Below are positions 2 through 42,441 of a stretch of 43,034 bases of DNA, one piece after another. Positions within the stretch are counted from its first letter, which is position 1, and the number at the start of each line of letters is the position of its first letter. The position numbers and the translations under genes were made by a program. Source of the stretch: an uncultured Pseudomonadales bacterium (lineage in GTDB: Bacteria; Pseudomonadota; Gammaproteobacteria; Pseudomonadales; Azotimanducaceae); assembly GCA_964445675.1 (NCBI GenBank), contig CAYUMA010000564.1:1-43034 (forward strand), given 5' to 3'. The notes below the pieces were generated by a model. It was given only the letters and a program-made list of their open reading frames with translations. It did no database searches and had not been told where the DNA came from.

Positions 2-3000
2 AATCCAGATCCCGCCGACGGCAGCCCGATGCTTCCCCCGGGCAAGTACGTGGTCGAAGTCATCGTGCCGCCGGGCTACGAACTGGTGAAGGAAGAAGAC
101 AGGAACATTCTGATGGGCGACGCCTACGTCGCGGCGGTGACGCAGCAGGTTCCGGGCGGCATCGGCAACATCTTCATCATGCCCGATCAAGCGGCGATCA
201 ACGCCTTCTACAACCCGAACAACGTGCTCCAGCCGTTGACGAACAACGGGGCGTCGCCGATGCGCGAAGGCGACACCGGCTCGGTCGAAGTGTTCTGGCC
301 CTGCGTCGGCGCCACGCGCATCGTTCCCGACTTCCCGAGCCTGTTTCCGGCCTCGGGGCAAGCGACTGCGTTTGCGGGCGCATCACGGCCCCTGTGCGAC
401 CGCAAGGCGGTCACGCTCAACGACCAGATGTCGGTGCTCGCGAAGTTCTACCTGTTCACCTCGACAGACATCGCCAGCCACTTCACCGGCCAGATCACCA
501 ACGACCTCGGGGCCGAGTTCGACCCGTTCTCGCCGCAGTTCGGCGAGAAGCTCGGCGTCCCCAATGTGCCGGTTGCGTTCAGGGATTTCACCGGCAAGGA
601 AATTTCCCGCATCTATGCCGACCAGTGGGGAAAATTCAACGGGATGAACTTCTCGGCCTGGACCGTCTGGCCGCCGAGCCCGAGCGGTTTCGTTCCGCAG
701 ATGATGATCACGTGCATGAACGACCCAGGTCCGATACCGGGTCCGAACGGCACCATGATCACCGATCCGATGTTCAACCCGGCCTACAGCAATTTCTGCT
801 ACGAGACGCCGTTCATGCCGGGCCAGACCGCGCACATGGACACACCGGTACTCCCCACCATGGGCTTCGCGGGGGGATACAACCTGCCTGATGCCGAGTA
901 CCCGGATACGACACCGGCGATCAAGACCGTGCATGGCCCGGCAAACGGTGGCCTCGGCGGACCGTTCGTGGCCGCCGCCGGTCAAACGCTGACCATCACG
1001 GCACTTGGCAATAAGCAGGTGCTCAACCACGCCTACTCCGGGCCGTCTGCTCTGTCTTCAGTTGCGTGTCCATCATGCAACCAGAAGTTCATCACGCGGA
1101 ACTACGGATTCGGTAGCGCAACAGGGACGGTCACCATCGGCGGAGTGCCCGCAACGGTCGTCGGACCCTGGGCAGATGGCTTGCTCACGGTCACCGTGCC
1201 CGGCGGCGTGCCGGCCTGCACGATCCAGCAACGCAACGTGCCAGGCACGGAGCTGTGCGGCCAACTGGAGATTACCCGGGGCAACGGCAAGCGGTCGATC
1301 GACGCGGTCACTGTGACGATTGGCGGCAAAGCGCCGACGTATATCAACGGCGAGAACGCGACCGGCAACGCGCTCCAACTCGCGATCGACAATGCCACGC
1401 CTGGCGACCTGATCATGGTCGGTCCGGGGGTTTACAAAGAAATGCTGTTGATGTGGAAGCCGGTCCGGCTGCAAGGCGTCGGCGCGGCCTCCGTGACGAT
1501 CAACGCGGATGCTCACCCGGCGGGCAAACTGGATCCATGGCGCAAGCAGGTCAATTGCCTCTTCGGCTTGACGCCGGATGGGCAGCCCGCCACCACCGTC
1601 TACCCCGGCTGCCACCGGGGGATGCTGGGTCGCGTGGACCGCATTCCGTTCGAAAGCATCATCGGTTGGGACGTCAGCGGCAACGGCAACCTGGCGCAGC
1701 TGCTGCAAGAGCCGACGCTGATGGGCGCTTACGAAGGTGCCGGCATTACGGTCCTTGGCCGCGGTGTGGGGTTCAATATCTTCAACCTGCCCACGCCTGC
1801 CGAACGGCTCGGTGTGGGATTCGAAGGCGGCTTCCCGGACGGATATCGCTACCTGACCGCGGGCACCGGCCTATTGGGGGCCTTGGACTGCACAGTGCTG
1901 CCTCCCCGTTTCGGCGTTGCCGGGTTCGACTATGCCACCAGCAACTTCCTGTGCAACCCATCGCGCATCGATGGCATCAGCATCACCAACAGCTCGCAAG
2001 GCGGCGGTGCCATCTACCTGCACGGCTGGAACCATAACATGGAGATCGCCAACAACCGGATCTTCGCCAACCACGGGACGTTTACGGGCGGCATTAATGT
2101 CGGTACCGGCGAACATCCTCCCGCGTACATCGTCGGTTCGGACAATCCGGACTTTCTGCCTCCTCCCGGCATGCCTGTAGCGGGCCTGGTGGACGGCGAA
2201 CAGGCCGGCTATGGGTTCAACCGCAACGTGCGCGTGCATCACAACTCGGTCACGAGCAACGCATCGATCGGCGACGCGTTGTATTCGGGCACGCCTTCGG
2301 CTGCGGGCGGCGTCACCTTCGCCGCCGGTGCGGACGGGTACTCCTTCACTGACAACTGGGTCGCTGGCAACCTGACCGCCGGCGACGGCGGTGGCGTTGT
2401 GCACGCGGGATTCAGCAACGACGGCAACATCTCGCGCAACCAGATCCTATTCAACCAGAGCGCGAGCGCAACGCTGCCGACCCACGGCGGCGGTCTTGCG
2501 ATCCTCGGCGCAGCCCTTGATCGCATTCTCGCCAATGGCCTGGAGTGCGGTACTGTGGACGACGCCGATTGCCCACCCGGGCTGACCGATGGCGTGGGCC
2601 GGCGCCTCGTGATCGACGCCAATCTCATCATGGGCAACAGCGCCGAGAGCGGCAGCGGTGGCGGCCTGCGCTTGCAGCGGGTCAATGGTGACGAGGTTGC
2701 CGCGTTCCCGACGACTCCGACCCGTTGGTACGAAGTCACCATCACCAACAACATCATCGCGAACAACGTCGCGGGCTGGGACGGCGGCGGCGTGTCGATG
2801 CAGGACGCGTTGAAGGTGAGGTTCTTCAACAACACGGTCGTGTCCAACGACACGACAGCATCGGCCGGTGTGCTCTTCAACACGCTCGGAGCCGGCTTCG
2901 CCAGCGTTCCAGGGCCGGGCGCAACGCCTGGGACTTGCCCACCGGACGCTCCGAGCTGTACCAATCCTCCGGTCTTGACCTCGACCAACCAGCCTGCAGG

Positions 3001-4477
3001 ATTGGTGACGATGGGCCACACGCCGAACCTGACTGCCTTGATGACGGCCCCGAATCCGCTTGCGAGCTGCCCCAATGCAGACTATGGCTATCTGAGCAAC
3101 GATTGCAGACAGGTCTCGCGTCCGCTGCTGCGGAACAACCTGTTCTGGCAGAACCGCGCGTTCCACATCGAGGTGGGAGCTTTGGGCGGGGGTCAGACGA
3201 ACCAGCAGGCAGTCGTCACCTTGGTACCCTCGTTGGATCAGACGACGGACACCGGCCAGTGCGTAGCGACCGGGACCGCTAACGGGGCGCCTGGGAGTGG
3301 TGGCCCGGTCACCTACTGGGACCTCGGCGTGCGTGGCGACACGAGTCCGACTCCGAACTCCGGCTCTGGTTTTGCGCTGAACCCGACAAACTCGATCATG
3401 ACCAGCATTGCCGGGTACGGCGGAACAGGCCTGTCAACGGGTGACCCGCTTGTGGTTAGCCAGTACTGCAACGGCTCGCGGCTGCCACCGGAAGGCGGCG
3501 GCCTGTTCGCCGGCTTCAACGCGCCGCCGGGACGCTCGGAATCAACGGGACTCTACCCCGTGTTCGCGCTGAATCAGGTCACGGCTGCCGCGACGGTCGA
3601 CGAAGGCAACAACTGGATCAATCTGAGTTACGGTCCGTTGGCGTTGGCCAATGCGGCCGCCGCTCCGGCACCCGGTACGATGCAGTTGGCGCTGGGTAAC
3701 CACGACATAAAGACCGGCTCGCCGGCGATCAGTAACGCCAGCGCGTTGGGTGCACCGAATCATGACTTCTTCGGTCGCGCACGCCCGCTGGGCGCTAATT
3801 TCGACATCGGTGCCGCAGAGTTCCTGGATGCCCCGCCTCCTGCGCCGGTGTTGCCGACGCTGGCTGTGCTCGACATCTTCAACCGCGCCAACGCGAATAA
3901 CCTCAACACTGGCGCGCCCGCTGGTGTGAACTGGAGCCAGATCACCCTGTTCGGTAGCTCGAGCCTGAGGGTGAACACCAGCCAGGCATTTGCTTCGTCG
4001 GGCGTGACCAATTTTGCGGTCTGGAATGGTCCGGGCAATGTCTTCGGTGCTAACCAGGGCGCGGCCTTCAGCTTCGCCGGCGCGCCGCTCAACGGGTCCG
4101 GAACGTGGCTGATCCTGAAGGCGAGTGGCGGTAGTCTCAGCCTGCCGGCGAACTACATCCGCGTGGCCTACGTGCTGCCCGGCGGCGGGCAGGTAACGGT
4201 TGCAACAACGACCAACAGCGGCGGTAGCTTCACGGCGCGCGGCACTTTGCCCGCGACCTTTGCCTCAGGCGACAGGCTGACGGCACGGGCTGACGCGACG
4301 GGCACGGTCTTTGTATGGAAGACGACCGCGGCGCTTGTGACGACCTACGTCGGCAGCGTGGCGATCCCGACGAGTGGAGGCGGTAGCTTCCCGCTTGCGA
4401 CGGGTGGCGGCCGGATCGGCATGCGGCTCCCGAATGGAGCGCGGGTCGACAACTTCGCCGGCGGCACGGTGCCGTAG
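2..4477 (+). CDS. Giant secreted/surface protein, 5'-partial: SdrD-B/CarboxypepD_reg-like piece, IPT/TIG-like domain, long right-handed parallel beta-helix (PbH1) repeat region, jelly-roll/LamG-like C-terminal domain
   Basis: The frame is open from base 2, with no stop before the first ATG at 29, so the gene continues off the left edge. PbH1-type repeats: NNRIFANHG, VHHNSVTSNAS, FTDNWVAGNLTAGDGGGV, ISRNQILFNQS, IDANLIMGNSAESGSGGGL, ITNNIIANNVAGWDGGGV, FFNNTVVSND. IPT/TIG-like stretch: TLTITALGNKQ...GTVTIGGVPATVVGPWADGLLTVTVPGGVP. N-terminal PGKYVVEVIVPPGYELV resembles SdrD-B/Cna-B-like folds. Confidence 0.8.
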   Translation, partial: NPDPADGSPMLPPGKYVVEVIVPPGYELVKEEDRNILMGDAYVAAVTQQVPGGIGNIFIMPDQAAINAFYNPNNVLQPLTNNGASPMREGDTGSVEVFWPCVGATRIVPDFPSLFPASGQATAFAGASRPLCDRKAVTLNDQMSVLAKFYLFTSTDIASHFTGQITNDLGAEFDPFSPQFGEKLGVPNVPVAFRDFTGKEISRIYADQWGKFNGMNFSAWTVWPPSPSGFVPQMMITCMNDPGPIPGPNGTMITDPMFNPAYSNFCYETPFMPGQTAHMDTPVLPTMGFAGGYNLPDAEYPDTTPAIKTVHGPANGGLGGPFVAAAGQTLTITALGNKQVLNHAYSGPSALSSVACPSCNQKFITRNYGFGSATGTVTIGGVPATVVGPWADGLLTVTVPGGVPACTIQQRNVPGTELCGQLEITRGNGKRSIDAVTVTIGGKAPTYINGENATGNALQLAIDNATPGDLIMVGPGVYKEMLLMWKPVRLQGVGAASVTINADAHPAGKLDPWRKQVNCLFGLTPDGQPATTVYPGCHRGMLGRVDRIPFESIIGWDVSGNGNLAQLLQEPTLMGAYEGAGITVLGRGVGFNIFNLPTPAERLGVGFEGGFPDGYRYLTAGTGLLGALDCTVLPPRFGVAGFDYATSNFLCNPSRIDGISITNSSQGGGAIYLHGWNHNMEIANNRIFANHGTFTGGINVGTGEHPPAYIVGSDNPDFLPPPGMPVAGLVDGEQAGYGFNRNVRVHHNSVTSNASIGDALYSGTPSAAGGVTFAAGADGYSFTDNWVAGNLTAGDGGGVVHAGFSNDGNISRNQILFNQSASATLPTHGGGLAILGAALDRILANGLECGTVDDADCPPGLTDGVGRRLVIDANLIMGNSAESGSGGGLRLQRVNGDEVAAFPTTPTRWYEVTITNNIIANNVAGWDGGGVSMQDALKVRFFNNTVVSNDTTASAGVLFNTLGAGFASVPGPGATPGTCPPDAPSCTNPPVLTSTNQPAGLVTMGHTPNLTALMTAPNPLASCPNADYGYLSNDCRQVSRPLLRNNLFWQNRAFHIEVGALGGGQTNQQAVVTLVPSLDQTTDTGQCVATGTANGAPGSGGPVTYWDLGVRGDTSPTPNSGSGFALNPTNSIMTSIAGYGGTGLSTGDPLVVSQYCNGSRLPPEGGGLFAGFNAPPGRSESTGLYPVFALNQVTAAATVDEGNNWINLSYGPLALANAAAAPAPGTMQLALGNHDIKTGSPAISNASALGAPNHDFFGRARPLGANFDIGAAEFLDAPPPAPVLPTLAVLDIFNRANANNLNTGAPAGVNWSQITLFGSSSLRVNTSQAFASSGVTNFAVWNGPGNVFGANQGAAFSFAGAPLNGSGTWLILKASGGSLSLPANYIRVAYVLPGGGQVTVATTTNSGGSFTARGTLPATFASGDRLTARADATGTVFVWKTTAALVTTYVGSVAIPTSGGGSFPLATGGGRIGMRLPNGARVDNFAGGTVP

Positions 4478-8238: not shown

Positions 8239-8883
8239 ATGGTGCGCGAGGCGTCTATTGCAGCCATGGTTCGCCCGTTCACCTACGTTGTGGCCGGCAC
8301 GCTGGCGCTCGCGCTCGGCTCTTCCGTCGCGACCGCCGACATCTACTCGTTCGTGGACGCGCACGGCGTCACGCATTACAGCAATGTCCCAACCGATTCG
8401 CGTTACCAGTTCCTGCTGGCAACGCCGGCTGAGAAGACTCGAAGCGGCGATGCATATGACGCGGCGCTCCTCGCGAGGTCGGCACAATTCGATCCGATCA
8501 TCGAGCATGCCGCTGCAGCCGCGTCCGTTGCGGCCGATCTGTTGCGCGCCGTGATCGTCGTCGAGTCCGGCTTCAACGCGCGTGCTGTATCCAGGCGCGG
8601 CGCCGCGGGATTGATGCAGCTGATGCCGGCGACAGCGCAGGCATTTGGCGCGACGGACCGCTTCGATCCGACGCAGAACATCCACGCCGGTGCGCGCTAT
8701 CTCCAGTCTTTGATGAAGCGTTACGACAACGACATCCGACTGACGCTGGCGGCCTACAACGCCGGCGAAAATGCGGTCGACCGCTGTGGTCGCTGCATTC
8801 CGAACTATCGCGAGACGCAGGCGTACGTGCCGAAAGTATGGCGGGTCTACCAGACCCTCCTCGGCCAGCCCCAAGCCAGCTGA
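8239..8883 (+). CDS. Soluble lytic transglycosylase (SLT domain) with DUF4124-like N-terminus
   Basis: SLT motifs ESGFN, GLMQLMPATA and AYNAG. N-terminal DIYSFVDAHGVTHYSNVP is the DUF4124 pattern. An alternative start at ATG 8266 gives a cleaner signal peptide. Confidence 0.85.
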   Translation: MVREASIAAMVRPFTYVVAGTLALALGSSVATADIYSFVDAHGVTHYSNVPTDSRYQFLLATPAEKTRSGDAYDAALLARSAQFDPIIEHAAAAASVAADLLRAVIVVESGFNARAVSRRGAAGLMQLMPATAQAFGATDRFDPTQNIHAGARYLQSLMKRYDNDIRLTLAAYNAGENAVDRCGRCIPNYRETQAYVPKVWRVYQTLLGQPQAS

Positions 8884-8988
8884 TCAGCGGGTGTACAGCA
8901 ACACCCCACCGCTGCCTACAGCAACTGCAGGACTGTTTCCGTCAGCGAACGGCGATAGCCTGTCTACTGGCATCGGAGGGGCGCCGCT

Positions 8989-10623
8989 ATGACCGAAGAA
9001 GCGCCAAACGCAGCGCCGCGGACCAGCCCCGCTGTGGTTGGCACAGACCCCACATTTCGAAGCGCCTTGGCCCAGGCGGCAATCGTGCGGGCGAAACAGG
9101 AATGGGAATCCACGGTAGATACGCTCCCGCAGGTCGTGTGCGTGCTCGACGGCGATCACAATATCGTGCGCGCCAACCGCGCGGTGGAAATGTGGGGTCT
9201 CGGCAACGTACGCGAATTGCCCGGGCGGAATCTGCACTCGCTACTGCACCCGAGGTGTGATGAAGCGGGCTGCGAACTGTCACGCCACCTCGATGAATCA
9301 TGGGGCTCACTGGCCGCGGGCGGCGCCGCCGATTTCGAGTTGTGTGATACGCGGCTCGGGCGCGTGCTCAACGTCGCGTTGCGACCGATCACGGTTGGCG
9401 CGGCCGACGACACCCTTTCTCCCATCAATCTCGCCGTCATCGTGCTGTCCGATATGACGGCCGCGAAGCACGTCCAGGAGACGCTGCAGACGACGAACCA
9501 GGAGCTCGACACGCGCACGCGCGAACTGGATGCGTCGCGTGACCAACTGTCGATGTTGTCGTCGCAATTGATGACAACGCAGGAAGACGAACGCAAGCGT
9601 ATCGCGCAGGAACTGCACGACAGCATCGGCCAGTCGCTTAGCGCCATCAAATATTCGCTGGAAACCGCTCTGGCAATGACGCACGGCCGCGATGCGAGCG
9701 CGCCGCGGAATCTGCTAACGACCACGATCGGCCGCGTCCAGGAGACGGTCGCGTCGACGCGCGCCATCGCCATGAACCTACGCCCTTCGATACTCGATGA
9801 CGTGGGCGTCGTTTCGGCGGTGCGTTGGTTCTGCCAGGAATTCGGCGACATCTACGCCACGATTCGAGTACACATGGACCTCGCGTTGAGCGACGGCGCA
9901 GTGCCTGAGCATCTCGCGACGCCGATCTTCCGCACCGTTCAGGAGTCCCTCAACAACGTTGCGAAGCACGCGCAGGCTAAGAATGTATTCGTCTCGCTGC
10001 GTAGCGACGCGCTGCTCACGTTGGAGGTGCGTGACGACGGAGTTGGATTCGATCCGAAGGACGCGGGCATGGCACTACGCGATGGCCACGGCCTCAGCGG
10101 CATGCAGGACCGCGCCGCGACGACTGGTGGGACGTTCACACTGCAATCAAAGCGTCGAGGCGGGACCGTGATGCGCGTCTGCTGGCCGAACAGCGTGTCT
10201 GCGCCAGCGCCACGCAACGGCAAGCGGCTGGGGTTCACGCTGCTCGAACTGCTCGTCGTCATGGTGATCATCGGCATTCTCGCGGGCTTCGTCGGCCCGC
10301 GTTACTTCGCGCAAGTGGGCAAGTCGCAAGTGAAGGCCGCCATGGCGCAGGTCGATGCGTTCGACAAAGCGCTCGACCAATACCGCGTCGACATGGGGCG
10401 CTACCCGACGAGTGAGGAAGGTCTCGAAGGTCTGCAACAGGCGCCCGCCGGAGAGGCGGCGTGGGGCGGGCCGTATCTGAAGAAAGCGGTTCCAGCCGAT
10501 CCGTGGGGCCGCGTGTATGTCTATGTCTCTCCTGGCACGAATGGTGATGCCGACATCCTGTCGTACGGCAAGGACGGGCGCTCCGGCGGCACGGGCGAGA
10601 ACGCCGACATTACCAACCGGTGA
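8989..10623 (+). CDS. Cytoplasmic PAS / HisKA_3 / HATPase_c histidine kinase (NarL-partner type); its ORF continues in frame into a GspG pseudopilin
   Basis: SD ggaggg lies 8 nt before ATG 8989. H-box ERKRIAQELHDSIGQSL, N-box ESLNNVAKHA, G-boxes DDGVGF and GHGLSGM. The kinase domain ends near GGTVMRVCWP, but there is no stop codon until 10623. Confidence 0.8.
   Translation: MTEEAPNAAPRTSPAVVGTDPTFRSALAQAAIVRAKQEWESTVDTLPQVVCVLDGDHNIVRANRAVEMWGLGNVRELPGRNLHSLLHPRCDEAGCELSRHLDESWGSLAAGGAADFELCDTRLGRVLNVALRPITVGAADDTLSPINLAVIVLSDMTAAKHVQETLQTTNQELDTRTRELDASRDQLSMLSSQLMTTQEDERKRIAQELHDSIGQSLSAIKYSLETALAMTHGRDASAPRNLLTTTIGRVQETVASTRAIAMNLRPSILDDVGVVSAVRWFCQEFGDIYATIRVHMDLALSDGAVPEHLATPIFRTVQESLNNVAKHAQAKNVFVSLRSDALLTLEVRDDGVGFDPKDAGMALRDGHGLSGMQDRAATTGGTFTLQSKRRGGTVMRVCWPNSVSAPAPRNGKRLGFTLLELLVVMVIIGILAGFVGPRYFAQVGKSQVKAAMAQVDAFDKALDQYRVDMGRYPTSEEGLEGLQQAPAGEAAWGGPYLKKAVPADPWGRVYVYVSPGTNGDADILSYGKDGRSGGTGENADITNR
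10171..10623 (+). CDS. gspG: Type II secretion major pseudopilin GspG, either nested in or fused to the kinase ORF
   Basis: Prepilin signature KRLG|FTLLELLVVMVIIGILA, with Phe+1 at 10234 and Glu+5. GspG body: QVDAFDKALDQYRVDMGRYPTSEEGLEGL...GPYLKK...DPWGRVYVYVSPG...DILSYGKDGRSGG. Possible internal starts are GTG 10168 and ATG 10171 (GAGG at 10157-10160) or GTG 10195. Confidence 0.75.
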   Translation: MRVCWPNSVSAPAPRNGKRLGFTLLELLVVMVIIGILAGFVGPRYFAQVGKSQVKAAMAQVDAFDKALDQYRVDMGRYPTSEEGLEGLQQAPAGEAAWGGPYLKKAVPADPWGRVYVYVSPGTNGDADILSYGKDGRSGGTGENADITNR

Positions 10624-11804
10624 GCGCATTGCAGTATCGCATCAAGGCACACGACCCCTCGCGCGGCATCCTGGTCTACGGTGTTGAGGCGCTCGATGAG
10701 GCCGATGCGCGGCGGCAAGTAGATGGCGCAGGCCGGCAGGTCATCTCAGTTGCGCGTTCATGGAAGCACAGTTCGGGGACACGCATTGCGCTCGTCCCTT
10801 TCAGTCAGGAGCTCGTGGCGCTGCTCGATGCCGGACTCACGCTCGTCGAGGCGATCGATACGCTGACCGAAAAGGAAGCGGCGACCGGTGCACGGCGCGC
10901 ACTCGAACAGATCCGCGGGCGCCTGTTCGAAGGCCTTACGTTTTCGGCTGCGCTCGAGGAGCTGCCGCAGTGTTTTCCGTCGCTCTATATCGCGACTGTG
11001 CGCGCGAGCGAACGCACCGGTGCGATTCGGGAGGCGCTGTTGCGCTTCGTGGCTTATCAGCGGCAGATCGACCTGTTGCGCGACAAGCTCGTGAGCGCGT
11101 CGATCTATCCGCTCGTGCTGTGCGGCGCCGGGCTGCTCGTTACGTTGTTTCTGCTCGGCTACGTGGTGCCGCGCTTCAGCAGCATCTATGAGGATCTCGG
11201 TACTGAGTTGCCTTTTGCCTCGCGCGTCTTGATGGAATGGGGACAGGCATTGCAGAACCACGGCTTGATCGGGTTGGTGCTGTTGGTGCTCATCGGGCTG
11301 GGCGTCGTTCGCGTGGTCGCGCGGCCAGCCGTGCGTGCATCGATCGGCCGCCGGCTGGCGCGCCTGCCGATCATCGGGCGACAGATGCAGATCTATCAGC
11401 TCGCGCGCCTTTATCGAACCGTTGGCATGTTGCTGCGCGGAGGTATGCCCGCGGTCACGTCGTTCGAAATGTCGGCGGGTCTTCTGAGTGCGGCGTTGAG
11501 ACCGGCACTGTCTCGAGCGACCCAGGCGGTGCGGGAAGGACAGTCGTTGGCCAATTCGATGGAGCGCTATGAACTCACGACGCCGGTTGCTACACGCATG
11601 CTCAGGGTCGGCGAACGCAGCGGCAACATGGGCGAAATGATGGAGCGGATAGCCGCGTTCTACGATGAGGAACTCGCGCGTATGGTCGACGTGCTGAGCC
11701 GGGTCATCGAGCCCGTGCTCATGACGGTCGTCGGCATCGCGATCGGCGTGATCGTCGTGCTGATGTACTTCCCGATCTTCGAGCTCGCGGGCAGCATCCA
11801 TTGA
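10620..11804 (+). CDS. gspF: Type II secretion inner-membrane platform protein GspF
   Basis: GTGA start/stop overlap with the previous ORF. Two T2SSF repeats with three TM segments, ~394 aa as is typical, ending PIFELAGSI. Confidence 0.85.
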   Translation: MSALQYRIKAHDPSRGILVYGVEALDEADARRQVDGAGRQVISVARSWKHSSGTRIALVPFSQELVALLDAGLTLVEAIDTLTEKEAATGARRALEQIRGRLFEGLTFSAALEELPQCFPSLYIATVRASERTGAIREALLRFVAYQRQIDLLRDKLVSASIYPLVLCGAGLLVTLFLLGYVVPRFSSIYEDLGTELPFASRVLMEWGQALQNHGLIGLVLLVLIGLGVVRVVARPAVRASIGRRLARLPIIGRQMQIYQLARLYRTVGMLLRGGMPAVTSFEMSAGLLSAALRPALSRATQAVREGQSLANSMERYELTTPVATRMLRVGERSGNMGEMMERIAAFYDEELARMVDVLSRVIEPVLMTVVGIAIGVIVVLMYFPIFELAGSIH

Positions 11805-13576
11805 ACGCGGTGCCCAATAGCGGCGTGCCGACCATCGCACCGGCGTTCGTGCTCGATGACGAGACGCTCGCGGCTGCGGCGGTCGAAGCCGAGCGGTTGG
11901 GCAGGTCCGCCGTCGATCTTCTGCAGGAGCGCACCGGGCTCGACTCGGACGCAGTCGCAGCGGCGGTGGCCATGGCGTTTCACTACGACCGCATGACGGC
12001 GGCGGAGCTGATGCGTCTGGAGCCCGCGTTCGATCTACTGCCATCGGCGGATGCGCTGCGCCACGGCAGCGTATTGGTTCGTCGCGGCGGCAAATTGACC
12101 GCGGTCATCGCCGATCCGTTCGACGCGAGCTTGCGACCCTGGCTCGAGGCGCGCGTCGCGTGCGTACTCGAGTGGGCCGTAGCGTCGCGATCGGACATCG
12201 TCGCGTTCATCGGCATGCGCGAGCAATCGATGCGCGCGATCGACTCCGCGGTCGAGGGTGCGCAGACCGACCACGACGGTGGCAAGGCCGTCGACAATTT
12301 GTCGCTGTCTTCGATCAGCGAGGATTCGAGCCCGATCGTCAAACTCGTTCACTCGACGGTGTTCGATGCGCTGCGGGCTGGCGCAAGCGATGTGCACCTC
12401 GAGACGGTCAGCAACGGTCTCGTGATTCGCTACCGCATCGACGGCGTCCTGGCGCAGATCGCGACCGTCTCAGGGGTAGCTGTTTCGGAGCAGGTGCTGT
12501 CGCGGATCAAAGTGATGTCGGAACTCGATATTTCGGAGCGGCGCGTACCGCAGGATGGCCGCTTCAAAATCGCCGTCGACAATCGGCCGATCGACTTCCG
12601 GGTGTCGATCATGCCGAGCGTGTACGGCGAAGACGCGGTGTTGCGCGTGCTCGATAAGAGCGCGGTCGCCGATCAACTGCAGGCGCTGCAACTCGATTCG
12701 CTCGGCTTCGACAGCCGCACCGTGAGTCAGCTGCGGCGTTTGTCGTCGCTGCCGCACGGCATGCTGCTCGTCACCGGACCGACCGGTAGCGGTAAGACAA
12801 CGACGCTCTACGCGGCGTTGTCGGAGACCAACACGGGTAACGACAAGATCGTGACGATCGAAGATCCGGTCGAATATCAGCTGTCCGGCGTATTGCAGAT
12901 TCCGGTCAACGAAAAAAAGGGGCTGACCTTTGCGCGCGGGCTGCGCTCGATCCTGCGGCACGATCCGGACAAGATCATGGTGGGCGAGATTCGCGATCCC
13001 GAGACCGCACAGATCGCCATTCAGTCCGCGCTCACCGGACATCTGGTATTCACCACCGTGCACGCGAACAACGTCTTCGACGTGCTCGGTCGGTTCCTGC
13101 ACATGGGGGTCGACACCTACAGCTTCGTAGCGGCGCTCAACGGCATTCTCGCGCAGCGCCTTTTGCGTCTCGTGTGCACCCATTGTGCCGAGGTCCCCGT
13201 TCCGCTGAGAACTTCCGGCTCACTAACGCCTGTTCGCTGGCTCGCAGCGGACAGCGACATTGCATTCATTCACGGCGCGCATTCCGTCGGTGTCCCAGCG
13301 TCGCCGACCGAAGCGACAGAAGACTCCGTGATCCGCGCGGGAGCCGGTTGCGGCCACTGCCGAGGCACCGGTTACCGCGGCCGGGTCGCCGTCGGGGAGT
13401 TGCTGGTGCTCAATGACGAGTTGCGTGAGGCCATCGTGCAGCGCGTCCCCGTCCGCCAACTGAAGGAGATGGCGCATCGCGCTGGCGTGCGCCTGCTGCG
13501 AACTGCGGCGCTCGAGCTGGCGCGCGACGGCCGCACAACCATCGAAGAGGTGAATCGTGTTACCACGATGGCGTGA
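11801..13576 (+). CDS. gspE: Type II secretion / type IV pilus-family assembly ATPase GspE
   Basis: TTGA overlap with gspF. Walker A GPTGSGKTT, Asp box IVTIEDPVEY, Walker B/His box IMVGEIRD...TGHLVFTTVHANN, tetracysteine CTHC...CGHCRGTGYRGR. Confidence 0.9.
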   Translation: MNAVPNSGVPTIAPAFVLDDETLAAAAVEAERLGRSAVDLLQERTGLDSDAVAAAVAMAFHYDRMTAAELMRLEPAFDLLPSADALRHGSVLVRRGGKLTAVIADPFDASLRPWLEARVACVLEWAVASRSDIVAFIGMREQSMRAIDSAVEGAQTDHDGGKAVDNLSLSSISEDSSPIVKLVHSTVFDALRAGASDVHLETVSNGLVIRYRIDGVLAQIATVSGVAVSEQVLSRIKVMSELDISERRVPQDGRFKIAVDNRPIDFRVSIMPSVYGEDAVLRVLDKSAVADQLQALQLDSLGFDSRTVSQLRRLSSLPHGMLLVTGPTGSGKTTTLYAALSETNTGNDKIVTIEDPVEYQLSGVLQIPVNEKKGLTFARGLRSILRHDPDKIMVGEIRDPETAQIAIQSALTGHLVFTTVHANNVFDVLGRFLHMGVDTYSFVAALNGILAQRLLRLVCTHCAEVPVPLRTSGSLTPVRWLAADSDIAFIHGAHSVGVPASPTEATEDSVIRAGAGCGHCRGTGYRGRVAVGELLVLNDELREAIVQRVPVRQLKEMAHRAGVRLLRTAALELARDGRTTIEEVNRVTTMA

Positions 13577-14375
13577 TGAGATTGCGATCCGGTTCGCTCC
13601 GGGCGAGCTCGTGCTCACACGCATCGGTCGCGGTATTCGCCCGCGCTGCACCGCAGACACGCGCGGCACGGTTAAGGAGTTCTTGCTGGCAGACTGGCGT
13701 CCGGCGCTCGCGGTTCTTGACGGCTGCTTGAGCGATCCTGCGTGGCAGGGCGCCAATGTCCGCATCGTGCTGTCTAATCACTGGGCGCGCTACGCGATCG
13801 TACCCTGGGCGAGCGATATCAAGAGCGAGGACGAGCGGCTCGCCCACGCGCGCATCTGTCTCGAGAAGGTTTACGGTCACATCGACCATCAATGGATCGT
13901 TAGCATCAGCGACGCACCACCCGGCCGGGCGCGAGTCGCGTCCGCAATTCAGCGTGATCTCCTCGATGGTTTGCGCGCGACGGTCCACGCCCACAATTCG
14001 CGTCTCGCGTCGGTACAACCGCAGCTCATCGTCTCTTACAACGGGTGGCTGCCGCGCCTGGCGGATGTGACCGGATGGTTCGTGAATATCGACGAGGGTT
14101 CGCTCGCCGCAGCGCGTCTGGATGCGGGCGGCTGGGACCGCGTTTATTCGGCGCGAATCGGCACCAATTGGTCGCTCGAACTGGATCGTTTGCGGACCTT
14201 CGGTCGGCTCGCCGCTAAAGACTCCGTCGAATCTCGCGTTTTCGTCGCCGCGCCCGACTGGCTGCGCGACCTTGCGAGCGATGGGGACGATGATGGCATC
14301 GAGTGGCTGCACGACGACGCCCCCGGCGCGTCCGCCGCTGCAGAACTCGCGCTCCTAAGGAGGCTATACGCATGA
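13557..14375 (+). CDS. Cytoplasmic PilM / GspL-N-like assembly protein (no TM segment)
   Basis: Assigned from its position immediately after gspE (GTG start with SD gaagagg, 20-nt overlap), its size and its lack of hydrophobic segments. Sequence similarity to PilM/GspL is only weakly recognisable by eye. Confidence 0.45.
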   Translation: MLPRWRDEIAIRFAPGELVLTRIGRGIRPRCTADTRGTVKEFLLADWRPALAVLDGCLSDPAWQGANVRIVLSNHWARYAIVPWASDIKSEDERLAHARICLEKVYGHIDHQWIVSISDAPPGRARVASAIQRDLLDGLRATVHAHNSRLASVQPQLIVSYNGWLPRLADVTGWFVNIDEGSLAAARLDAGGWDRVYSARIGTNWSLELDRLRTFGRLAAKDSVESRVFVAAPDWLRDLASDGDDDGIEWLHDDAPGASAAAELALLRRLYA

Positions 14376-14899
14376 AGCGCCGCGCGATTGAACTCGACTT
14401 CGCACACGGCCAGCCGTGGCTCACCTTCGGTGGAACGGCACTGCTCCTCGCGGGCCTGACAGTCGCGATCCTCGTGTTCGCGGATTACCGCGGTGTCGCT
14501 GAGCGAAACGAGGGACTCGAACTGCGACTCGCGGCGCTGCGCGATGGTGCACAGCAGACGAAGCCCGACAAGGCGGCGCTGCGCGTGCAGCAGGATGCCG
14601 ACGTTGCGTTTCACGACCTCACGATGCCGTGGTCGGTACTGCTGCGGGAACTGGAACTCGCAAGCGCGGACAGCAAGGGCAGCGTGGCGGTACTTGCGGT
14701 CGAGCCCGATCGGCAGAAGGGTCAAGTGCAGATTCTGGCGGAGGCGCGCACGCTGCCGATCGCTCTCGCGTACGTCAAACGTCTGCAACAAAGCCAGGCG
14801 CTGCGCTATCCGATGCTCGAAAGCCATGAATTGCAGGTCAAGGATCCGGAACGGCCGGTGCGCTTTCAGATCAAGGCCGACTGGAGCTCGACCCAATGA
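14372..14899 (+). CDS. Bitopic PilN / GspL-periplasmic-like assembly protein
   Basis: ATGA overlap with the previous gene. One TM segment (LTFGGTALLLAGLTVAILVF), then a coiled coil and an alpha/beta domain. The track ORF start at 14303 is an Arg-rich extension and was rejected. Confidence 0.5.
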   Translation: MKRRAIELDFAHGQPWLTFGGTALLLAGLTVAILVFADYRGVAERNEGLELRLAALRDGAQQTKPDKAALRVQQDADVAFHDLTMPWSVLLRELELASADSKGSVAVLAVEPDRQKGQVQILAEARTLPIALAYVKRLQQSQALRYPMLESHELQVKDPERPVRFQIKADWSSTQ

Positions 14900-15582
14900 A
14901 AACACTGCCAGAGACCCAATCCGTGAAGGCGTTTTCCGCGCTGAGTCAAGTGGCCAAGCCGGTCGTTGAGCAGCCGCGGAGCGCGACGCGCGCGGTCTCG
15001 CAGCTACCGACCGCAACACAGCATCTTTCGAACTTGGCGCGGCTCGTCTCAACTCGAGTAGCACCGTACATCGCCTACCAGGTGCAACGCGGCGGCCGCG
15101 CGGGCGTGATGGGTATCGCGCTGATCATCTTCAGCCTGGTCTGCTTCGTGAGCGCCAATTCGCCTCTGCGGAATCAGTTGGCGGACTTGCAGACGGAGAT
15201 TTCGACCGCGCACGCATCGCAGGTTGTCGCCGACACTGTTGTGCGAGAGGTCCCGTCAAAGACGCTGATATCGAATCTGCCGTCGCGTGCCGAGCTACCC
15301 GCGGTCACCGAGCAGATCGTTGCGCGGGCCGATGCGGCCGGCCTCGCACTCGAGCAGGGCAGCTACGAGGTGAAGGTCGTGGGCTCGGGCGAGATCGCGC
15401 GTGCGAGCCTGACGTTCCCCGTGCACGGCGGCTATCCGAACATTCGCCGCTTCATCGACGAAACGCTGGCAGTAATTCCAGGAGCGGCGCTGGATGGCCT
15501 GCAGCTACAGCGCAAGGAAATCGGGGCAGCGGAAATCGACGCTGAAATCCGTTTCGCGGTCTATCTGAGAAATGCAGCGTGA
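14896..15582 (+). CDS. Bitopic PilO / GspM-like assembly protein
   Basis: ATGA overlap. Single TM (VMGIALIIFSLVCFVSA) followed by a coiled coil (LRNQLADLQTEI) and a C-terminal ferredoxin-like-looking domain. Confidence 0.5.
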   Translation: MKTLPETQSVKAFSALSQVAKPVVEQPRSATRAVSQLPTATQHLSNLARLVSTRVAPYIAYQVQRGGRAGVMGIALIIFSLVCFVSANSPLRNQLADLQTEISTAHASQVVADTVVREVPSKTLISNLPSRAELPAVTEQIVARADAAGLALEQGSYEVKVVGSGEIARASLTFPVHGGYPNIRRFIDETLAVIPGAALDGLQLQRKEIGAAEIDAEIRFAVYLRNAA

Positions 15583-16052
15583 GACGCGTCGCCGGTTTCA
15601 CGCTTATCGAGCTCGTGATCACGGTCGCGATCGTGGGGCTCATCGCGACCGCCGCAATGCCCTTCGCGGAGCTCACCGTACGTCGCAGCAAGGAACAGGA
15701 GCTGCACGTCGCATTGCGTGAGATTCGCGCGGCGATCGACCGATACAAGGATGCCGCCGATCATGGGCGCATCGAGCGGGAAGCCGATGCGACGGGTTAT
15801 CCGCCGGCGCTCGATGCGTTGTTCGCGGGTGTCGAGGACATCACGAGTCCAGACAAGAAGCTGTTGTTTTTTGCGCGTCGAGTACCGCGCGATCCGTTCT
15901 TCCCCGACGGATCGGTGCCACCGATCGCAACGTGGGGTCTTAGAAGTTACGCGAGTCCGCCCGAGAGTCCGCAGGCCGGCGACGATGTTTACGATGTCTA
16001 TTCGATGGCCGCAGGAACTGCACTGAATGGCAGCCTTTATCGTGATTGGTGA
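15579..16052 (+). CDS. GspG-family pseudopilin
   Basis: GTGA overlap. Leader MRRVAG|FTLIELVITVAIVGLIA with Glu+5. PulG-like helix RRSKEQELHVALREIRAAIDRYK. Confidence 0.8.
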   Translation: MRRVAGFTLIELVITVAIVGLIATAAMPFAELTVRRSKEQELHVALREIRAAIDRYKDAADHGRIEREADATGYPPALDALFAGVEDITSPDKKLLFFARRVPRDPFFPDGSVPPIATWGLRSYASPPESPQAGDDVYDVYSMAAGTALNGSLYRDW

Positions 16053-16437
16053 CGCGGCACGGCGCTCCCGGCCAGCCGGGTTCACATTGATCGAGTTGCT
16101 GGTCGTGTTGTCGATCATCGCGACGCTGCTGATGATCGCGGTGCCGCGGTACTTCCACAGCGAAGAGCGCTCCAAAGAAGCCGTATTGCAACAGGACCTG
16201 GCGGTCATGCGCGACGCCATCGACAAGCACTACGCAGATCTTGCGCGATACCCGGAGGCGCTCGCGGATCTGGTCGAACGTCGCTACTTGCGCAACATCC
16301 CGATCGATCCCCAGACCAAGTCGAGGGACACCTGGGTGTTGGTCCAGAGCGACAATGCGGAAGCCCCGGGCATACTCGACGTGCACAGCGGCTCTACCGA
16401 CAAGGCCAATGACGGGACGGAATTTGCCAGCTGGTAG
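16027..16437 (+). CDS. GspG-family pseudopilin
   Basis: Leader ...RRSRPAG|FTLIELLVVLSIIATLL with Glu+5. PulG-like EERSKEAVLQQDLAVMRDAIDKHYADLARYP. Start is either ATG 16027 or GTG 16042. Confidence 0.8.
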   Translation: MAAFIVIGDAARRSRPAGFTLIELLVVLSIIATLLMIAVPRYFHSEERSKEAVLQQDLAVMRDAIDKHYADLARYPEALADLVERRYLRNIPIDPQTKSRDTWVLVQSDNAEAPGILDVHSGSTDKANDGTEFASW

Positions 16438-16447
16438 GCTTGCCGCC

Positions 16448-17011
16448 GTGCGTTGCCGGAACTACCTGCAGCGGCGTCCGCGCGGCTTCACCTTTCTCGG
16501 AATTCTGATTGCCATCGCAATCCTCGGGGTAGCACTTTCCGCGGCCGGGTCCCTCTGGACAACGGTCGCGCAAAGGGACCGCGAGGCCGAGCTTCTCTTC
16601 GTGGGCGAGGCATATCGAAGTGCGATTGCGAGTTACTTCCGAGCCGGTGGGCGGCTGCCGCTGGAGTTGCAGGACCTCGTCGACGATCGCCGAATGCCGG
16701 CCCCGCGCCGTCATCTGCGTCGCCTTTACAACGATCCGATCACGGGGCGATTCGACTGGGAACTCATCCTGGCGCCTGACGGTGGAATCATCGGGCTGCA
16801 CAGCGCGTCGCAGAAGACCCCGATCAAGCGCGCGAACTTCCCCGTGAACGAAGCGGAGTTCACCGACGCGCAGTGCTACTGCGACTGGACATTCCTGTTC
16901 AGCATGTCGCGGCAGCGTCGACCCTCGAGCAACGGACACGTGACCGACGCGCCGCCGCTCGGCACATCGCTCGAGAATGGCAGCGCAACAGCTCCGTCGG
17001 ATGGACTCTGA
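16448..17011 (+). CDS. Atypical minor pseudopilin lacking Glu+5
   Basis: GTG 16448 gives the leader VRCRNYLQRRPRG|FTFLGILIAIAILGVALSA, where position +5 is Gly. The track ORF start at 16241 overlaps the previous gene in another frame and was rejected. Confidence 0.6.
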   Translation: MRCRNYLQRRPRGFTFLGILIAIAILGVALSAAGSLWTTVAQRDREAELLFVGEAYRSAIASYFRAGGRLPLELQDLVDDRRMPAPRRHLRRLYNDPITGRFDWELILAPDGGIIGLHSASQKTPIKRANFPVNEAEFTDAQCYCDWTFLFSMSRQRRPSSNGHVTDAPPLGTSLENGSATAPSDGL

Positions 17012-17152: not shown

Positions 17153-17860
17153 TTGAACGCGATGCAGTCAGACGTTCGGCTTCGATTGGTTCTGGTGGAC
17201 GATCACGCCATCCTACGCGAGGGATTACGCGCACTGCTGGGGCTCGAGATGGATCTCGAGGTGGTTGGCGAGGCCGACAATAGCGACGATGGCTTCGACA
17301 TCGTGAAGCAGATGCAGCCTGACGTGGTCGTTACGGATCTCGGCTTACCGCGGCGCAGCGGCATCCAGTTGATCACGCGGGTGCGTGATGCCGCACCCAA
17401 CGTGCGCGTACTGGTGCTGACGGTACATAACAGCGAGGCGCACATCAGGGCCGCGCTGTCGTCGGGCGCAAGTGGCTACGTACTCAAGGAATCGAGCCGT
17501 GCGGATCTCCTGGACGCGATCCGGACGGTCGCGCGCGGACAGCGCTATCTGTGCCCACCCGTCTCCGCGAAGGTGGTGTCGGGATTCCTCGGCGACAGCG
17601 AATTCCGCGCGGCGGTACCCCTGCAAGGTCTGACGAACCGCGAACGAGAGGTCCTCGCGCTGGTCGCACTTGGTAAGTCGAACAAGCGCATCGCGTCGCA
17701 GCTTATGCTCAGCGTGAAGACGATCGAAAAGCATCGCTCAAACTTCATGCGCAAGCTCAAGCTCCACAACACGGCGGCCGTGACGATGTTCGCCATCTGC
17801 AACGAACTCGTGTCGACCGGTGAGGCGCCGGTAGTTGAGCACCCGGTAACGGGCCGGTAA
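17153..17860 (+). CDS. NarL/FixJ-family response regulator (REC + LuxR-type HTH)
   Basis: RLVLVDDHAILREGL...DVVVTDLGLP (acceptor Asp). C-terminal LTNREREVLALVALGKSNKRIASQLMLSVKTIEKHRSNFMRKL. TTG 17153 has GAGGGG 8 nt upstream; ATG 17162 is an alternative start. Confidence 0.9.
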   Translation: MNAMQSDVRLRLVLVDDHAILREGLRALLGLEMDLEVVGEADNSDDGFDIVKQMQPDVVVTDLGLPRRSGIQLITRVRDAAPNVRVLVLTVHNSEAHIRAALSSGASGYVLKESSRADLLDAIRTVARGQRYLCPPVSAKVVSGFLGDSEFRAAVPLQGLTNREREVLALVALGKSNKRIASQLMLSVKTIEKHRSNFMRKLKLHNTAAVTMFAICNELVSTGEAPVVEHPVTGR

Positions 17861-18316: not shown

Positions 18317-19948
18317 TCAAGCAGGCCCGCCCTGGGACGGTCGTGGCACGCCCGCCTCGGCGTGCGCGAGATGACGCCGCACCGCGTCGACGAGTTGCGG
18401 CAATGCTTCGGCGGCGTCTCCCTTACTCGCGTCGAGCCAATGCGAGGTGTTCAGGAAGTACCCCAGGGCATCCGGCAACGGTGCTTTGTCAATCCGCAAC
18501 GAAATGACCGGGTGGCGCTTCGACATCGCGCGTTCGACCTCTCGCAGCACATGGGGCGATGTCGCTGCGTTGCGCGACAGGATGAGCACCATGACCTTCG
18601 CGACATCCATGGCGTGCACGATGGCATCTGGGTAGAGATCGCCAGGTGTCACATCGCGCGCCGCGACCCAGCACTTCATACCCTCGCGTTCCAGCGCCGC
18701 ACAAACGGCATCGGCAACGGCGATGTCTTCTGAGGCGACGCTGAGAAACACGTCCCGGCCTGCGGCGGGAATTTGGCCTGCACCGGGCCGTGTTGTGGAC
18801 GAGCCTTTCGCTTCGGCGGCCGCTGTACTCCTCCGACGCGTGCCGAGCACGTTGTACGCACTGATGGGGCGCTTGAAGCCGCGCAACTGAAGTTCCCCGA
18901 CCGGAGCGGATTCGAAGTGGCTCTCCACCACCATGAGCAGCCGGCGCGAGACCAGGATCTGGCCGTGCCGCGCCTCCCCGCACAGTCGCGCGGCGAGATT
19001 TGTCACCGCGCCGATCGCGGCGTAGTCCCAACGCCCTTCGAAGCCGATCTCGCCGATCGTCGCAAAACCGTTCGCAATCCCGATCCCGAGGCCGAGATCG
19101 TAGTCGCGCTTGTCCCAGCGCGTTGCCTTGAGCTGCTCGACCCTGTCGCGGATTTCGAGCGCCATGTCGACCGCGCTGCGCTCAGGCTGCTCCACCGGCA
19201 CGGGGTCATTGAAGAAGATCATCATCCCGTCCCCGGTGAAGCGCTCGAGCGTTCCCTTGTGCTGCACAATCAGCTGTCCCACCTCTTTGTGGAACTCGCT
19301 GAGCACCATCATCATTTCCTCGGGTTCCTCCGACTCCGCGAAAGCGGTGAAGCCACGCAGGTCGAGGAAGGCAACGCTGACGTCGCCGCGGTGCGGGCGC
19401 AGCGGATCGTCGGTGGCGCCGCTGACGATCAGCTCCGCGAGCTGCGGCGAAAAGAAGCGTTTCAGCCGCGAGAGGTGCTCGATCGCCGTGACCTGCTCCG
19501 CCACCCTCGCCTCCAGCGTCCGGTTCCAATCGCTGAGCTGCGTCGCCTGCTGTCCGACGAGCCGGTGCAGCTCGCCAATTCGCAGCAACGAGCGCACTCG
19601 CGCCAAAAGCTCCTGGCGATTGATCGGCCTCGTCAAAAAATCGTCCGCACCTGCCTCGATGCCCTTCACGCGCTCCTCGGCCGGATCGAGGGCCGTAATC
19701 ATGACAACCGGAAGCAGCGTCGTGGTCGGGTCCGCGCGAATTCGACGGCACACCTCGTAGCCATCGAGGTCCGGCATCATCACGTCGAGCAGCACGGCAT
19801 CCGGTGCGAATTCTCCGATCGCCGCTAGACCTTCGCGGCCCGAGTGAGCAATCCGCACGTCGTAACCGTGCAGCGCGAGAACGTCGCCCAACAGTTTTCC
19901 GTTAGCGGGTTGGTCGTCTACGACTAAGAGGCGGCCGCGCGTGGTCAT
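18317..19948 (-). CDS. Three-domain signalling protein: receiver (REC), class III adenylate/guanylate-type cyclase, and C-terminal TIR domain
   Basis: REC: LLVVDDQ...LLDVMMPDLDG...ADDFLTRP. Cyclase: VAFLDLRGFT, RFTGDGMMIFF, YAAIGAVTNLAARL. TIR: DVFLSVASEDIAVADAVCAALEREGMKCWVAARDVTPGDLYPDAIVHAMDVAKVMVLILSRNAATSPHVLREVERA. ATGA overlap with the upstream CheY gene. Confidence 0.8.
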   Translation of the reverse strand: MTTRGRLLVVDDQPANGKLLGDVLALHGYDVRIAHSGREGLAAIGEFAPDAVLLDVMMPDLDGYEVCRRIRADPTTTLLPVVMITALDPAEERVKGIEAGADDFLTRPINRQELLARVRSLLRIGELHRLVGQQATQLSDWNRTLEARVAEQVTAIEHLSRLKRFFSPQLAELIVSGATDDPLRPHRGDVSVAFLDLRGFTAFAESEEPEEMMMVLSEFHKEVGQLIVQHKGTLERFTGDGMMIFFNDPVPVEQPERSAVDMALEIRDRVEQLKATRWDKRDYDLGLGIGIANGFATIGEIGFEGRWDYAAIGAVTNLAARLCGEARHGQILVSRRLLMVVESHFESAPVGELQLRGFKRPISAYNVLGTRRRSTAAAEAKGSSTTRPGAGQIPAAGRDVFLSVASEDIAVADAVCAALEREGMKCWVAARDVTPGDLYPDAIVHAMDVAKVMVLILSRNAATSPHVLREVERAMSKRHPVISLRIDKAPLPDALGYFLNTSHWLDASKGDAAEALPQLVDAVRRHLAHAEAGVPRPSQGGPA

Positions 19949-20331
19949 CCGGGTTTTCCTCGCAACGCGAGTCCCTCACCAACGAGTTCGGCAAGTCTGA
20001 GTACGCGGATCGGCTTGGTCTCATAGCCGTCGAAACCCGCCGCGAGAATCTGATTCCGCTCCTCGGGGAGAGCCGACGCGGTTAGCGCGATCACAGGGAC
20101 GTCGTGCGTCGCCGGGTCTGCGCGCAGGCAACGCAGTGCCGCGACGCCATCCATGCCGGGTAGTTGGATGTCCATCAGCACCAGATCGGGTCTGCGTTCC
20201 TTGGCCATCGCGAGACCCTGTTCGGCGGTACCCGCTTCGACGACTTCGAAGCCGCGAAAGCGCAGAACGTCCCGCACGAGCTTGCGGTTGATCTCAACGT
20301 CCTCGATCACCAGGATCAGCTCACCCGCCAT
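19945..20331 (-). CDS. Single-domain CheY-like response regulator
   Basis: Start at ATG 20331 (MAGELILVIEDVEINRKL...DLVLMDIQLPGMDG...FDGYETKPI). The track ORF start at 20559 lies inside the kinase gene and was rejected. Confidence 0.85.
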   Translation of the reverse strand: MAGELILVIEDVEINRKLVRDVLRFRGFEVVEAGTAEQGLAMAKERRPDLVLMDIQLPGMDGVAALRCLRADPATHDVPVIALTASALPEERNQILAAGFDGYETKPIRVLRLAELVGEGLALRGKPG

Positions 20332-37159: not shown

Positions 37160-37198
37160 GTCGGATGGCCGCCCTTCGCTTGACTACCACGTTCCTGC

Positions 37199-39708: not shown

Positions 39709-39735
39709 ACTCCTTCTCCCGCACGCGCGGAGCGC

Positions 39736-42414: not shown

Positions 42415-42441
42415 GGCACCTCCACCTCGCACGGCCGTTCG

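Follow-up and report, generated by a model that had tools for sequence, protein, structure and literature searches.

We describe a sensor histidine kinase and a GspG-type major pseudopilin that are encoded together as one uninterrupted open reading frame (ORF) in the DNA of an uncultured Pseudomonadales bacterium (contig CAYUMA010000564.1 of assembly GCA_964445675.1; the whole stretch analysed, 43,034 nucleotides (nt) long, is called the window here). Taken together, the homologues, the alignments and the tree presented below give good support to a conserved kinase::GspG fusion with a single origin. The ORF occupies positions 8989-10623, and the window sequence contains no stop codon between kinase and GspG in that frame. 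A sequence-only reading of this DNA had already proposed that the kinase ORF runs into GspG without a stop, and the ORF listing, the Pfam matches and the sequence all agree on this. The positions that it gave for Phe+1 (10234), for the stop codon at 10621-10623 overlapping the gspF start and for a GAGG at 10157-10160 also hold. Along the forward strand, the ORF is made up as follows (aa, amino acids):

8975..8979, +, Shine-Dalgarno (SD) sequence GGAGG of the fused ORF, 9 nt ahead of ATG 8989; anti-SD duplex -10.0 kcal/mol
8989..10623, +, fused ORF, sensor histidine kinase and prepilin-type GspG in the same frame; a single 544-aa ORF by ORF listing and Pfam
9115..9294, +, PAS sensor domain; Pfam PAS_4 at aa 43-102, 23.1 bits, exactly at the cut-off
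9589..9792, +, HisKA_3 dimerisation/phospho-acceptor domain; aa 201-268, Pfam 53.6 bits, above the cut-off
9919..10188, +, HATPase_c catalytic domain; aa 311-400, Pfam 43.2 bits, above the cut-off
10157..10173, +, candidate internal initiation site within the last kinase strand; GAGG 10157-10160, GTG 10168, ATG 10171
10189..10233, +, linker or remnant leader, NSVSAPAPRNGKRLG; aa 401-415, net charge +3, predicted disordered
10231..10236, +, predicted prepilin peptidase site Gly415/Phe416, Phe+1 beginning at 10234; matches to the N_methyl and TIGR02532 motifs
10234..10620, +, mature GspG major pseudopilin; aa 416-544

Both halves look functional by their conserved residues and profile scores. 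In the kinase, the phospho-acceptor H210 lies in an invariant ELHD motif and is itself invariant across 34 aligned sequences, as are N322/N323 of the N-box and D349-G353 and G366/G368 of the G-boxes. The PAS fold extends beyond its Pfam match to about aa 135, with an AlphaFold2 (AF2) predicted local distance difference test score (pLDDT) of about 85 across aa 40-135. The model also gives aa 392-400 (GTVMRVCWP) as the final beta-strand of HATPase_c, so that the kinase ends at P400 (10186-10188), and pLDDT falls below 50 over aa 404-417. The predicted cleavage site reads KRLG/FTLLELLVVMVIIGILAGF and lies within the Pfam N_methyl match (aa 412-435). The T2SSG domain (PF08334, aa 439-543) scores 130.7 bits against a cut-off of 21, and the GspG portion reaches 160 bits on TIGR01710, against a curated cut-off of 88.85. 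The tail peptide reads VCWPNSVSAPAPR, and the TGA of the ORF overlaps the gspF start codon GTG at 10620 (GTGA). Thus, the GspG half has the family profile and the prepilin motif; a short basic leader with its own initiator Met is missing, as 415 residues precede Phe+1.

The junction is reproduced in other data. A 1611-nt contig assembled from run X1 spans 9862-10900 with 0 differences and 0 gaps, and a 151-nt contig from run X2, which belongs to another study, spans 10149-10299 with 0 differences. Since contigs from two separate runs are identical to the window across the junction, the missing stop codon is real in the organism. A metatranscriptome run (X7) matches only 10262-10406, outside the junction, and comes from a related organism.

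Conservation and origin of the fusion

A search of 5.8 billion proteins recovered the same fused architecture in about 30 distinct clusters at 90% identity, within the same gene cluster, and the open junction could be read in the DNA of 19 distinct fused loci. Several of the fused clusters come from metagenome-assembled genomes (MAGs) labelled Steroidobacteraceae and, on the homologues found, the fusion is conserved throughout one clade of uncultured Steroidobacteraceae-like bacteria. Intact fusions are present in NCBI, JGI, ENA and Logan assemblies; one of them (P0004) lies on at least three separately assembled contigs (NCBI, JGI and ENA, possibly from one sample), and another (P0002) is carried by four contigs. 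Most of the fused relatives have an equivalent SD and ATG for the whole ORF (protein start 'MA[DE]...', duplexes of -6.4 to -9.3 kcal/mol). Sources that name the fused clusters call them 'GspG'; in NCBI, the 513-548-aa homologues P0004 and P0016 are labelled only in this way, which hides the kinase half.

Among the fused homologues, identity to the window is 55-71% in the kinase part and 74-87% in the GspG part, and mean conservation is 80% for the GspG domain versus 64% for the kinase. The alignment points clearly to purifying selection on both domains. The linker, taken from the last kinase strand (...GTVVRVGWP) to Gly-1, has a mean identity of 12% among homologues and a length of 5, 6, 13, 14 or 15 residues; the frame is always kept and stop codons are never seen. 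F+1 and E+5 are invariant, and Gly-1 is found in 33 of 34 sequences (P0017 has Ala). The retention of G-1, F+1 and E+5 therefore argues that the pseudopilin is under selection for processing and assembly.

When the library is clustered at 50% identity, a single representative stands for all fused sequences, and a search of the representatives gave no second independent kinase::GspG family among the best 150 matches; the fusion is therefore rare and lineage-specific. One further protein of 390 aa (P0221) has a more distant HisKA_3 kinase (49% identity) that continues in frame into GspG through a 40-residue linker, itself containing a canonical MRRWRG/F. We did not count it as a second fusion family, given its signs of frameshift error and its own MRRWRG leader. 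With both of its ends looking frameshifted, it could be either an independent in-frame arrangement or an error. Of 100 loci matched by a pattern search of metagenome DNA, about 80% were ordinary gspG genes with a chance TGGCC upstream; none had an out-of-frame kinase-gspG junction, a result valid only for spacings of 16-46 nt; unfused relatives with a longer spacing lie beyond the reach of this pattern.

Unfused outgroups (L001-L006 and L008) came from a scan of genome contigs keyed on the pilin N-terminus, whose other matches were mostly ordinary betaproteobacterial GspG. In a neighbour-joining tree of the kinase region, built from fused and unfused sequences, the fused sequences form one clade with the unfused P0036/P0037 (locus L185) as its sister. 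A single fused clade with an unfused sister indicates one fusion event, and no reversion was seen. The separating stop or frameshift that the sequence-only reading had suggested looking for in relatives does exist in the unfused outgroup, and does not apply to the fused clade. Kinase and gspG are separate genes in different frames both in the sister L185 and in the deeper L001 and L004-L006.

In L185, the kinase lies directly 5' of gspG, which is followed by gspF. The kinase ends in ...VDWPLPAPGAA-TAA, and the gspG ATG overlaps this stop by one base (TAATG; L185 5213-5230), with AGGAG upstream and the leader MCIFRRRQGSRTASAG/FTLLE. In L001 and L004, the kinase TGA falls inside gspG codons 3-5 in another frame, and the overlap between kinase stop and gspG measures 14 nt in L001 (about 10180-10245) and 11 nt in L004 (about 10240-10299). 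The unfused gspG genes (L001, L002, L004, L005, L006 and L185) start with ATG (GTG in L005), have SD duplexes of -5.7 to -10.3 kcal/mol and encode leaders of 12-16 aa. From the stop/start overlap in these relatives, the ancestral state was therefore two translationally coupled genes. In the more distant L002 and L003, some 2 kb separate the kinase from the gspG downstream of it, and in L002, by eye, an SLT-like sequence directly precedes gspG; the genes around gspG have therefore been reordered within the wider family.

L185 has 71 nt between the WP codons and Phe+1, and the long-linker fused forms have 45 nt. This net loss of 26 nt (2 mod 3) is exactly the shift that merges the two frames, and the alignment gap falls over the stretch of SD, stop and ATG, with a placement that is uncertain at such divergence. 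By this comparison, the fusion removed the region with the ancestral gspG SD and ATG start. An additional loss of 30 nt gives the short-linker subclade (...GWPLRQAG/F).

Release from a precursor or internal initiation

The pilin helix (aa 411-441) is the only hydropathy peak in the 544 aa, and the kinase itself lacks transmembrane segments. The AF2 monomer runs from the last catalytic strand (392-400) through an unstructured, low-confidence stretch (404-417) into a long pilin helix from residue 418. The model is moderate (pLDDT 66.6, predicted template modelling score 0.34), with the globular part of GspG poorly modelled, and served for domain boundaries only; it suggests a disordered linker that may be accessible to the peptidase. 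Prepilins insert N-in, with a cytoplasmic leader, and their peptidases, which belong to the GxGD aspartyl membrane proteases, cleave behind Gly-1 on the cytoplasmic side (PMC4985597, PMC2947513). This topology is compatible with a cytoplasmic domain ahead of the cleavage site, because the leader and the cut are both on that side of the membrane.

We hold with moderate confidence that the most likely mechanism is the liberation of GspG from a kinase::prepilin precursor by prepilin peptidase. Ribosomes starting at ATG 8989, with its strong SD, would produce a 544-aa precursor made of soluble kinase (aa 1-400), basic linker (401-415) and GspG (416-544). The pilin helix would insert N-in/C-out, holding the kinase at the cytoplasmic face and placing the globular domain of GspG in the periplasm. 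A prepilin peptidase encoded outside the window would then cut G415/F416, supplying the GspE/GspF machine with mature GspG and setting free a 415-aa kinase, and the kinase would signal to the NarL-type regulator encoded at 17153-17860, as domain class and synteny suggest. Since a ribosome starting at ATG 8989 meets no stop before 10621, every kinase is made with GspG attached.

One fused locus, L187 (P0002), favours this mechanism: it has GTC CTG at the internal site and no ATG, GTG or TTG for 46 codons before Phe+1, and its nearest upstream in-frame codons able to serve as starts lie 47 (TTG) and 55 (ATG) codons ahead of Phe+1. A GspG with a normal leader is therefore impossible by internal initiation at least in that lineage, and the simplest account of the whole clade is that the pseudopilin arises from the precursor. 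A real kinase::prepilin fusion was among the explanations offered by the sequence-only reading, and it is the best supported of them, with the ancestral gspG SD and ATG gone and L187 lacking a usable internal start.

It is tempting to go one step further and to see the prepilin peptidase as a signalling protease, with the kinase tethered by the pseudopilin helix and released or switched only upon processing, and its output to the NarL-type regulator reporting pseudopilin synthesis and processing. We regard this extension as tentative and, on balance, somewhat unlikely. The predicted layout resembles that of regulated intramembrane proteolysis (RIP), with one hydrophobic segment, a disordered linker and a G/F site directly N-terminal to the helix.

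Several points weigh against the release of GspG from such a precursor. To our knowledge, prepilin leaders are about 5-30 aa long and none is as large as a folded leader of 415 residues. The short-linker subclade leaves 4 residues between the last kinase strand and Gly-1, which may hinder the peptidase. The major pseudopilin is normally needed in amounts far above those of a kinase, and 1:1 synthesis looks costly. Family searches found neither a prepilin peptidase nor a secretin (GspD) gene in the 43-kb window. The fused sequences all come from metagenomes or MAGs, with no cultured strain among them. To these are added the possible internal starts. In the 19 fused loci, the sole recurrent in-frame start-capable codons before Gly-1 are at two adjacent Val codons of the last kinase strand (T-V-V-R-V), and in 18 of the 19 one of this pair is GTG or ATG, which would give leaders of 11-12 or 21-22 aa.

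These codons raise the main alternative, one that we consider unlikely, namely that most GspG comes from a nested gene whose translation begins internally, at the GTG/ATG of the last kinase strand, the read-through fusion being tolerated or secondary, for example as a membrane- or machine-tethered kinase. The three internal codons named by the sequence-only reading, GTG 10168 (V394), ATG 10171 (M395) and GTG 10195 (V403), are all present and in frame. The last of these has no SD (duplex -1.5 kcal/mol). The nested gene starting at GTG 10168/ATG 10171, with its 21-22-aa leader, is physically possible in the window, where GAGG 10157-10160 forms a duplex of -7.8 kcal/mol; it is not conserved in the clade. 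Internal initiation would solve the stoichiometry problem, and the 11-12-aa leaders of the short-linker forms resemble the 12-16-aa leaders of unfused relatives. Loci with GTT or GTA at the second of the two Val codons carry GTG or ATG at the first, and a weak SD is not disqualifying, since the listed starts of gspF and of the SLT gene in the window also lack one. However, the excess of start-capable codons is statistically weak: chance would give 0.76 per locus (GTG makes up 51% of Val codons in these genes), and P is about 0.04 with kinship uncorrected. We therefore rejected a conserved internal start, 18 of 19 being not clearly above the codon-usage expectation and L187 having none. Nor is the SD conserved. 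Duplexes of -6.4 to -9.5 kcal/mol occur at some site in L084, L161 and L170, with -1.7 to -5.0 elsewhere, and in the stronger cases (-7.8 in the window, -9.5 in L170) the SD-like bases belong to the R-G-G codons that the kinase needs for its own sequence. Moreover, the strong ancestral SD and ATG were lost rather than kept, the absence of an upstream stop codon makes termination-reinitiation coupling unavailable, and the kinase molecules would still all carry GspG, so that the fusion protein would exist in any case. Nested initiation is more plausible in the window than in some relatives, and ATG 10171 is a plausible supplementary start for GspG there.

Release of GspG from the precursor has also to be set against the possibility that the fusion is never cleaved, the pseudopilin module having no other role than to anchor the kinase in the membrane by its C-terminus, or to place it at the GspE/F platform for docking or sensing, while another gspG elsewhere in the genome supplies the pseudopilus. 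The pilin helix is indeed the sole membrane segment of the kinase, the short linker may disfavour cleavage, and intramembrane contacts between pilins and kinases are a known principle of signalling, both for PilA-PilS (as cited in PMC6058289) and for PilA-PleC (PMC7196804). Against this stand the invariant or nearly invariant G-1, F+1 and E+5, which act in cleavage, methylation and assembly, the higher conservation of the GspG domain than of the kinase, and its score as a full GspG equivalog. In addition, the fused ORF is the sole GspG-class gene of the cluster and sits where unfused relatives carry a stand-alone gspG. We judge an uncleaved fusion to be very improbable. The sequence-only reading had also listed a stop codon lost through mutation or assembly error, which would make the junction an artefact or a recent event in a decaying pseudogene. 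Frameshifts do occur in the same gene in a few contigs, inside either the kinase or the GspG part (L186 at 10001-11634, which encodes P0039; P0031; P0034; L170), and these copies ('contig_NNNN' records) are probably assembly errors rather than biology. The identical junction in contigs of two runs, the intact fusion in about 30 clusters across four assembly sources and the clear purifying selection on both domains refute the lost-stop explanation, to which we give hardly any weight.

The gene cluster and its neighbourhood

The fused ORF belongs to a cluster of genes that all lie on the forward strand of the window:

8239..8883, +, DUF4124-SLT lytic transglycosylase, the syntenic first gene
10620..11804, +, GspF/PilC-type platform protein; TIGR02120 258.7 bits, under the equivalog cut-off of 424
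11801..13576, +, GspE/PilB-type assembly ATPase, under its equivalog cut-off
13557-14375, one ending at 14899, and 14896-15582, +, three conserved proteins with no family match, the last weakly PilO-like
15579-16052, +, prepilin-type gene, MRRVAG/FTLIE
16027-16437, +, prepilin-type gene, ...RPAG/FTLIE
about 16440-17011, +, prepilin-type gene, ...RPRG/FTFLG (G/FTFLGIL), without Glu+5
17153..17860, +, REC + GerE (NarL/LuxR-type) response regulator, the last gene of the cluster

Long contigs share the order SLT, kinase::GspG, GspF, GspE, three proteins without family, pseudopilin-type genes and REC-GerE regulator. The three proteins without family, which we presume to be parts of the assembly platform, have syntenic counterparts of 271, 175 and 231 aa in L081 and L084. 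The pseudopilin-type genes number three in the window, and L081 and L084 have two N_methyl genes and a third small gene. The ORF listing merged the third prepilin-type gene of the window into a 256-aa ORF starting at 16241. The REC-GerE regulator is syntenic in L081, L084 and L186, and is likely to be the partner of the kinase, as it belongs to the class expected for HisKA_3. GspE, GspF, GspG and three prepilin-type genes are thus present, and the missing Gsp genes could be elsewhere in the genome. With GspE and GspF short of their equivalog cut-offs and no secretin gene nearby, the cluster is better called type II secretion system (T2SS)/type IV filament-like than a proven T2SS.

Upstream of the cluster, the window encodes a giant beta-helix/adhesin-like protein (29-4477, +, 1482 aa), with relatives of 3497 aa in L081 (1-5008) and 2939 aa in L084 (1-4593). 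Small ORFs and SCO1/SenC accompany it in the window, L081 and L084, and a cytochrome-c-like protein does so in the window and L081. This beta-helix protein may be a cargo of the machine or a partner to it.

Other parts of the window hold features of their own. On the reverse strand, 18317-19948 encodes a 543-aa protein with the unusual combination of a receiver domain, an adenylate/guanylate cyclase and a C-terminal TIR domain; it adjoins a stand-alone REC protein (19945-20559), and near it lies a 1001-aa hybrid kinase (20321-23326; sCache-HAMP-GAF-HisKA-HATPase-REC x2). A 958-aa ORF at 28723-31599 (-) has MFS-like, spermidine-synthase-like and TPR regions. At 31688-40770 (-) and 41128-42432 (-), multihaem cytochromes (paired CXXCH, MtrC/MtrF-like) alternate with NHL beta-propeller proteins, in a block that also includes a NapC/NirT-like cytochrome and a flavocytochrome-c sulfide dehydrogenase flavoprotein.

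Known systems and what the fusion would mean

The GspG half has the features of canonical GspG and type IV prepilins such as PulG, XcpT and PilA, including Gly-1/Phe+1/Glu+5, the hydrophobic helix, the T2SSG domain and the adjoining GspF and GspE. In contrast to these, its leader is a folded, apparently functional kinase of 415 residues, and the ancestral initiator Met and SD are absent. The kinase half is a regular HisKA_3-type kinase (NarX/DesK/LiaS class) with a NarL-type regulator encoded nearby. The unfused cluster (L185, L001 and L004-L006) has the same neighbourhood and a kinase directly upstream of gspG; there, however, the kinase has its own stop, overlapping or abutting a gspG start with a strong SD. 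Full-text literature searches on such a fusion, on long prepilin leaders and on the T2SS of Steroidobacteraceae gave nothing relevant, and no paper on a kinase-pseudopilin fusion was found.

Links between kinases and pilins have been described for separate proteins, and in function these come closest to the fusion. In P. aeruginosa, PilS senses PilA within the membrane and its response regulator controls pilus genes (PMC6058289, in a passage citing Kilmury & Burrows 2016), and Caulobacter PilA acts on the PleC kinase (PMC7196804). The fusion is similar in coupling a histidine kinase to the inner-membrane pool of (pseudo)pilin through the pilin N-terminal segment. Yet in PilS-PilR and PilA-PleC the kinase and the pilin are separate and interact in the membrane, whereas here they are covalently joined. 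Furthermore, PilS is a HisKA kinase with six transmembrane segments and an NtrC-type partner, and the kinase described here is a soluble HisKA_3 kinase with a NarL-type regulator.

With RIP by GxGD proteases (presenilin/Notch, signal peptide peptidase), the fusion would share a single-pass N-in protein whose cytoplasmic signalling domain is predicted to be releasable; unlike in RIP, cleavage would take place at the membrane-cytoplasm boundary and presumably be constitutive, and the released domain would be a kinase instead of a transcription factor. In-frame nested genes with conserved internal starts include CheA-L/CheA-S and IF2 alpha/beta. As in these, one ORF could give a long and a short product with a common C-terminus, in the window from the SD and ATG at 10157-10173. 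In contrast to CheA and IF2, the internal site is not conserved, being absent from L187, and the long and the short product would be proteins of unrelated function.

The fusion would impose an obligatory coupling: a kinase could never be made without pseudopilin nor, at least in some lineages, a pseudopilin without kinase. Prepilin processing would then decide between a tethered and a free kinase, and the model predicts two peptidase-dependent products from one ORF. Prepilin peptidases are seen as trimmers of very short leaders; if the proposed cleavage is true, a kinase leader of 415 residues would widen the substrate range of these GxGD proteases. Annotation that takes domain architecture into account would flag the homologues now named only 'GspG'. 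If true, the arrangement would be the first in which a two-component sensor is covalently joined to the major subunit of a type IV filament machine. Were the peptidase a signalling protease as well, the result would be a covalent and stoichiometric version of PilA-PilS feedback and a bacterial equivalent of signalling through GxGD proteases. The arrangement bears on how cells match the supply of pseudopilin or pilin to the activity of the machine.

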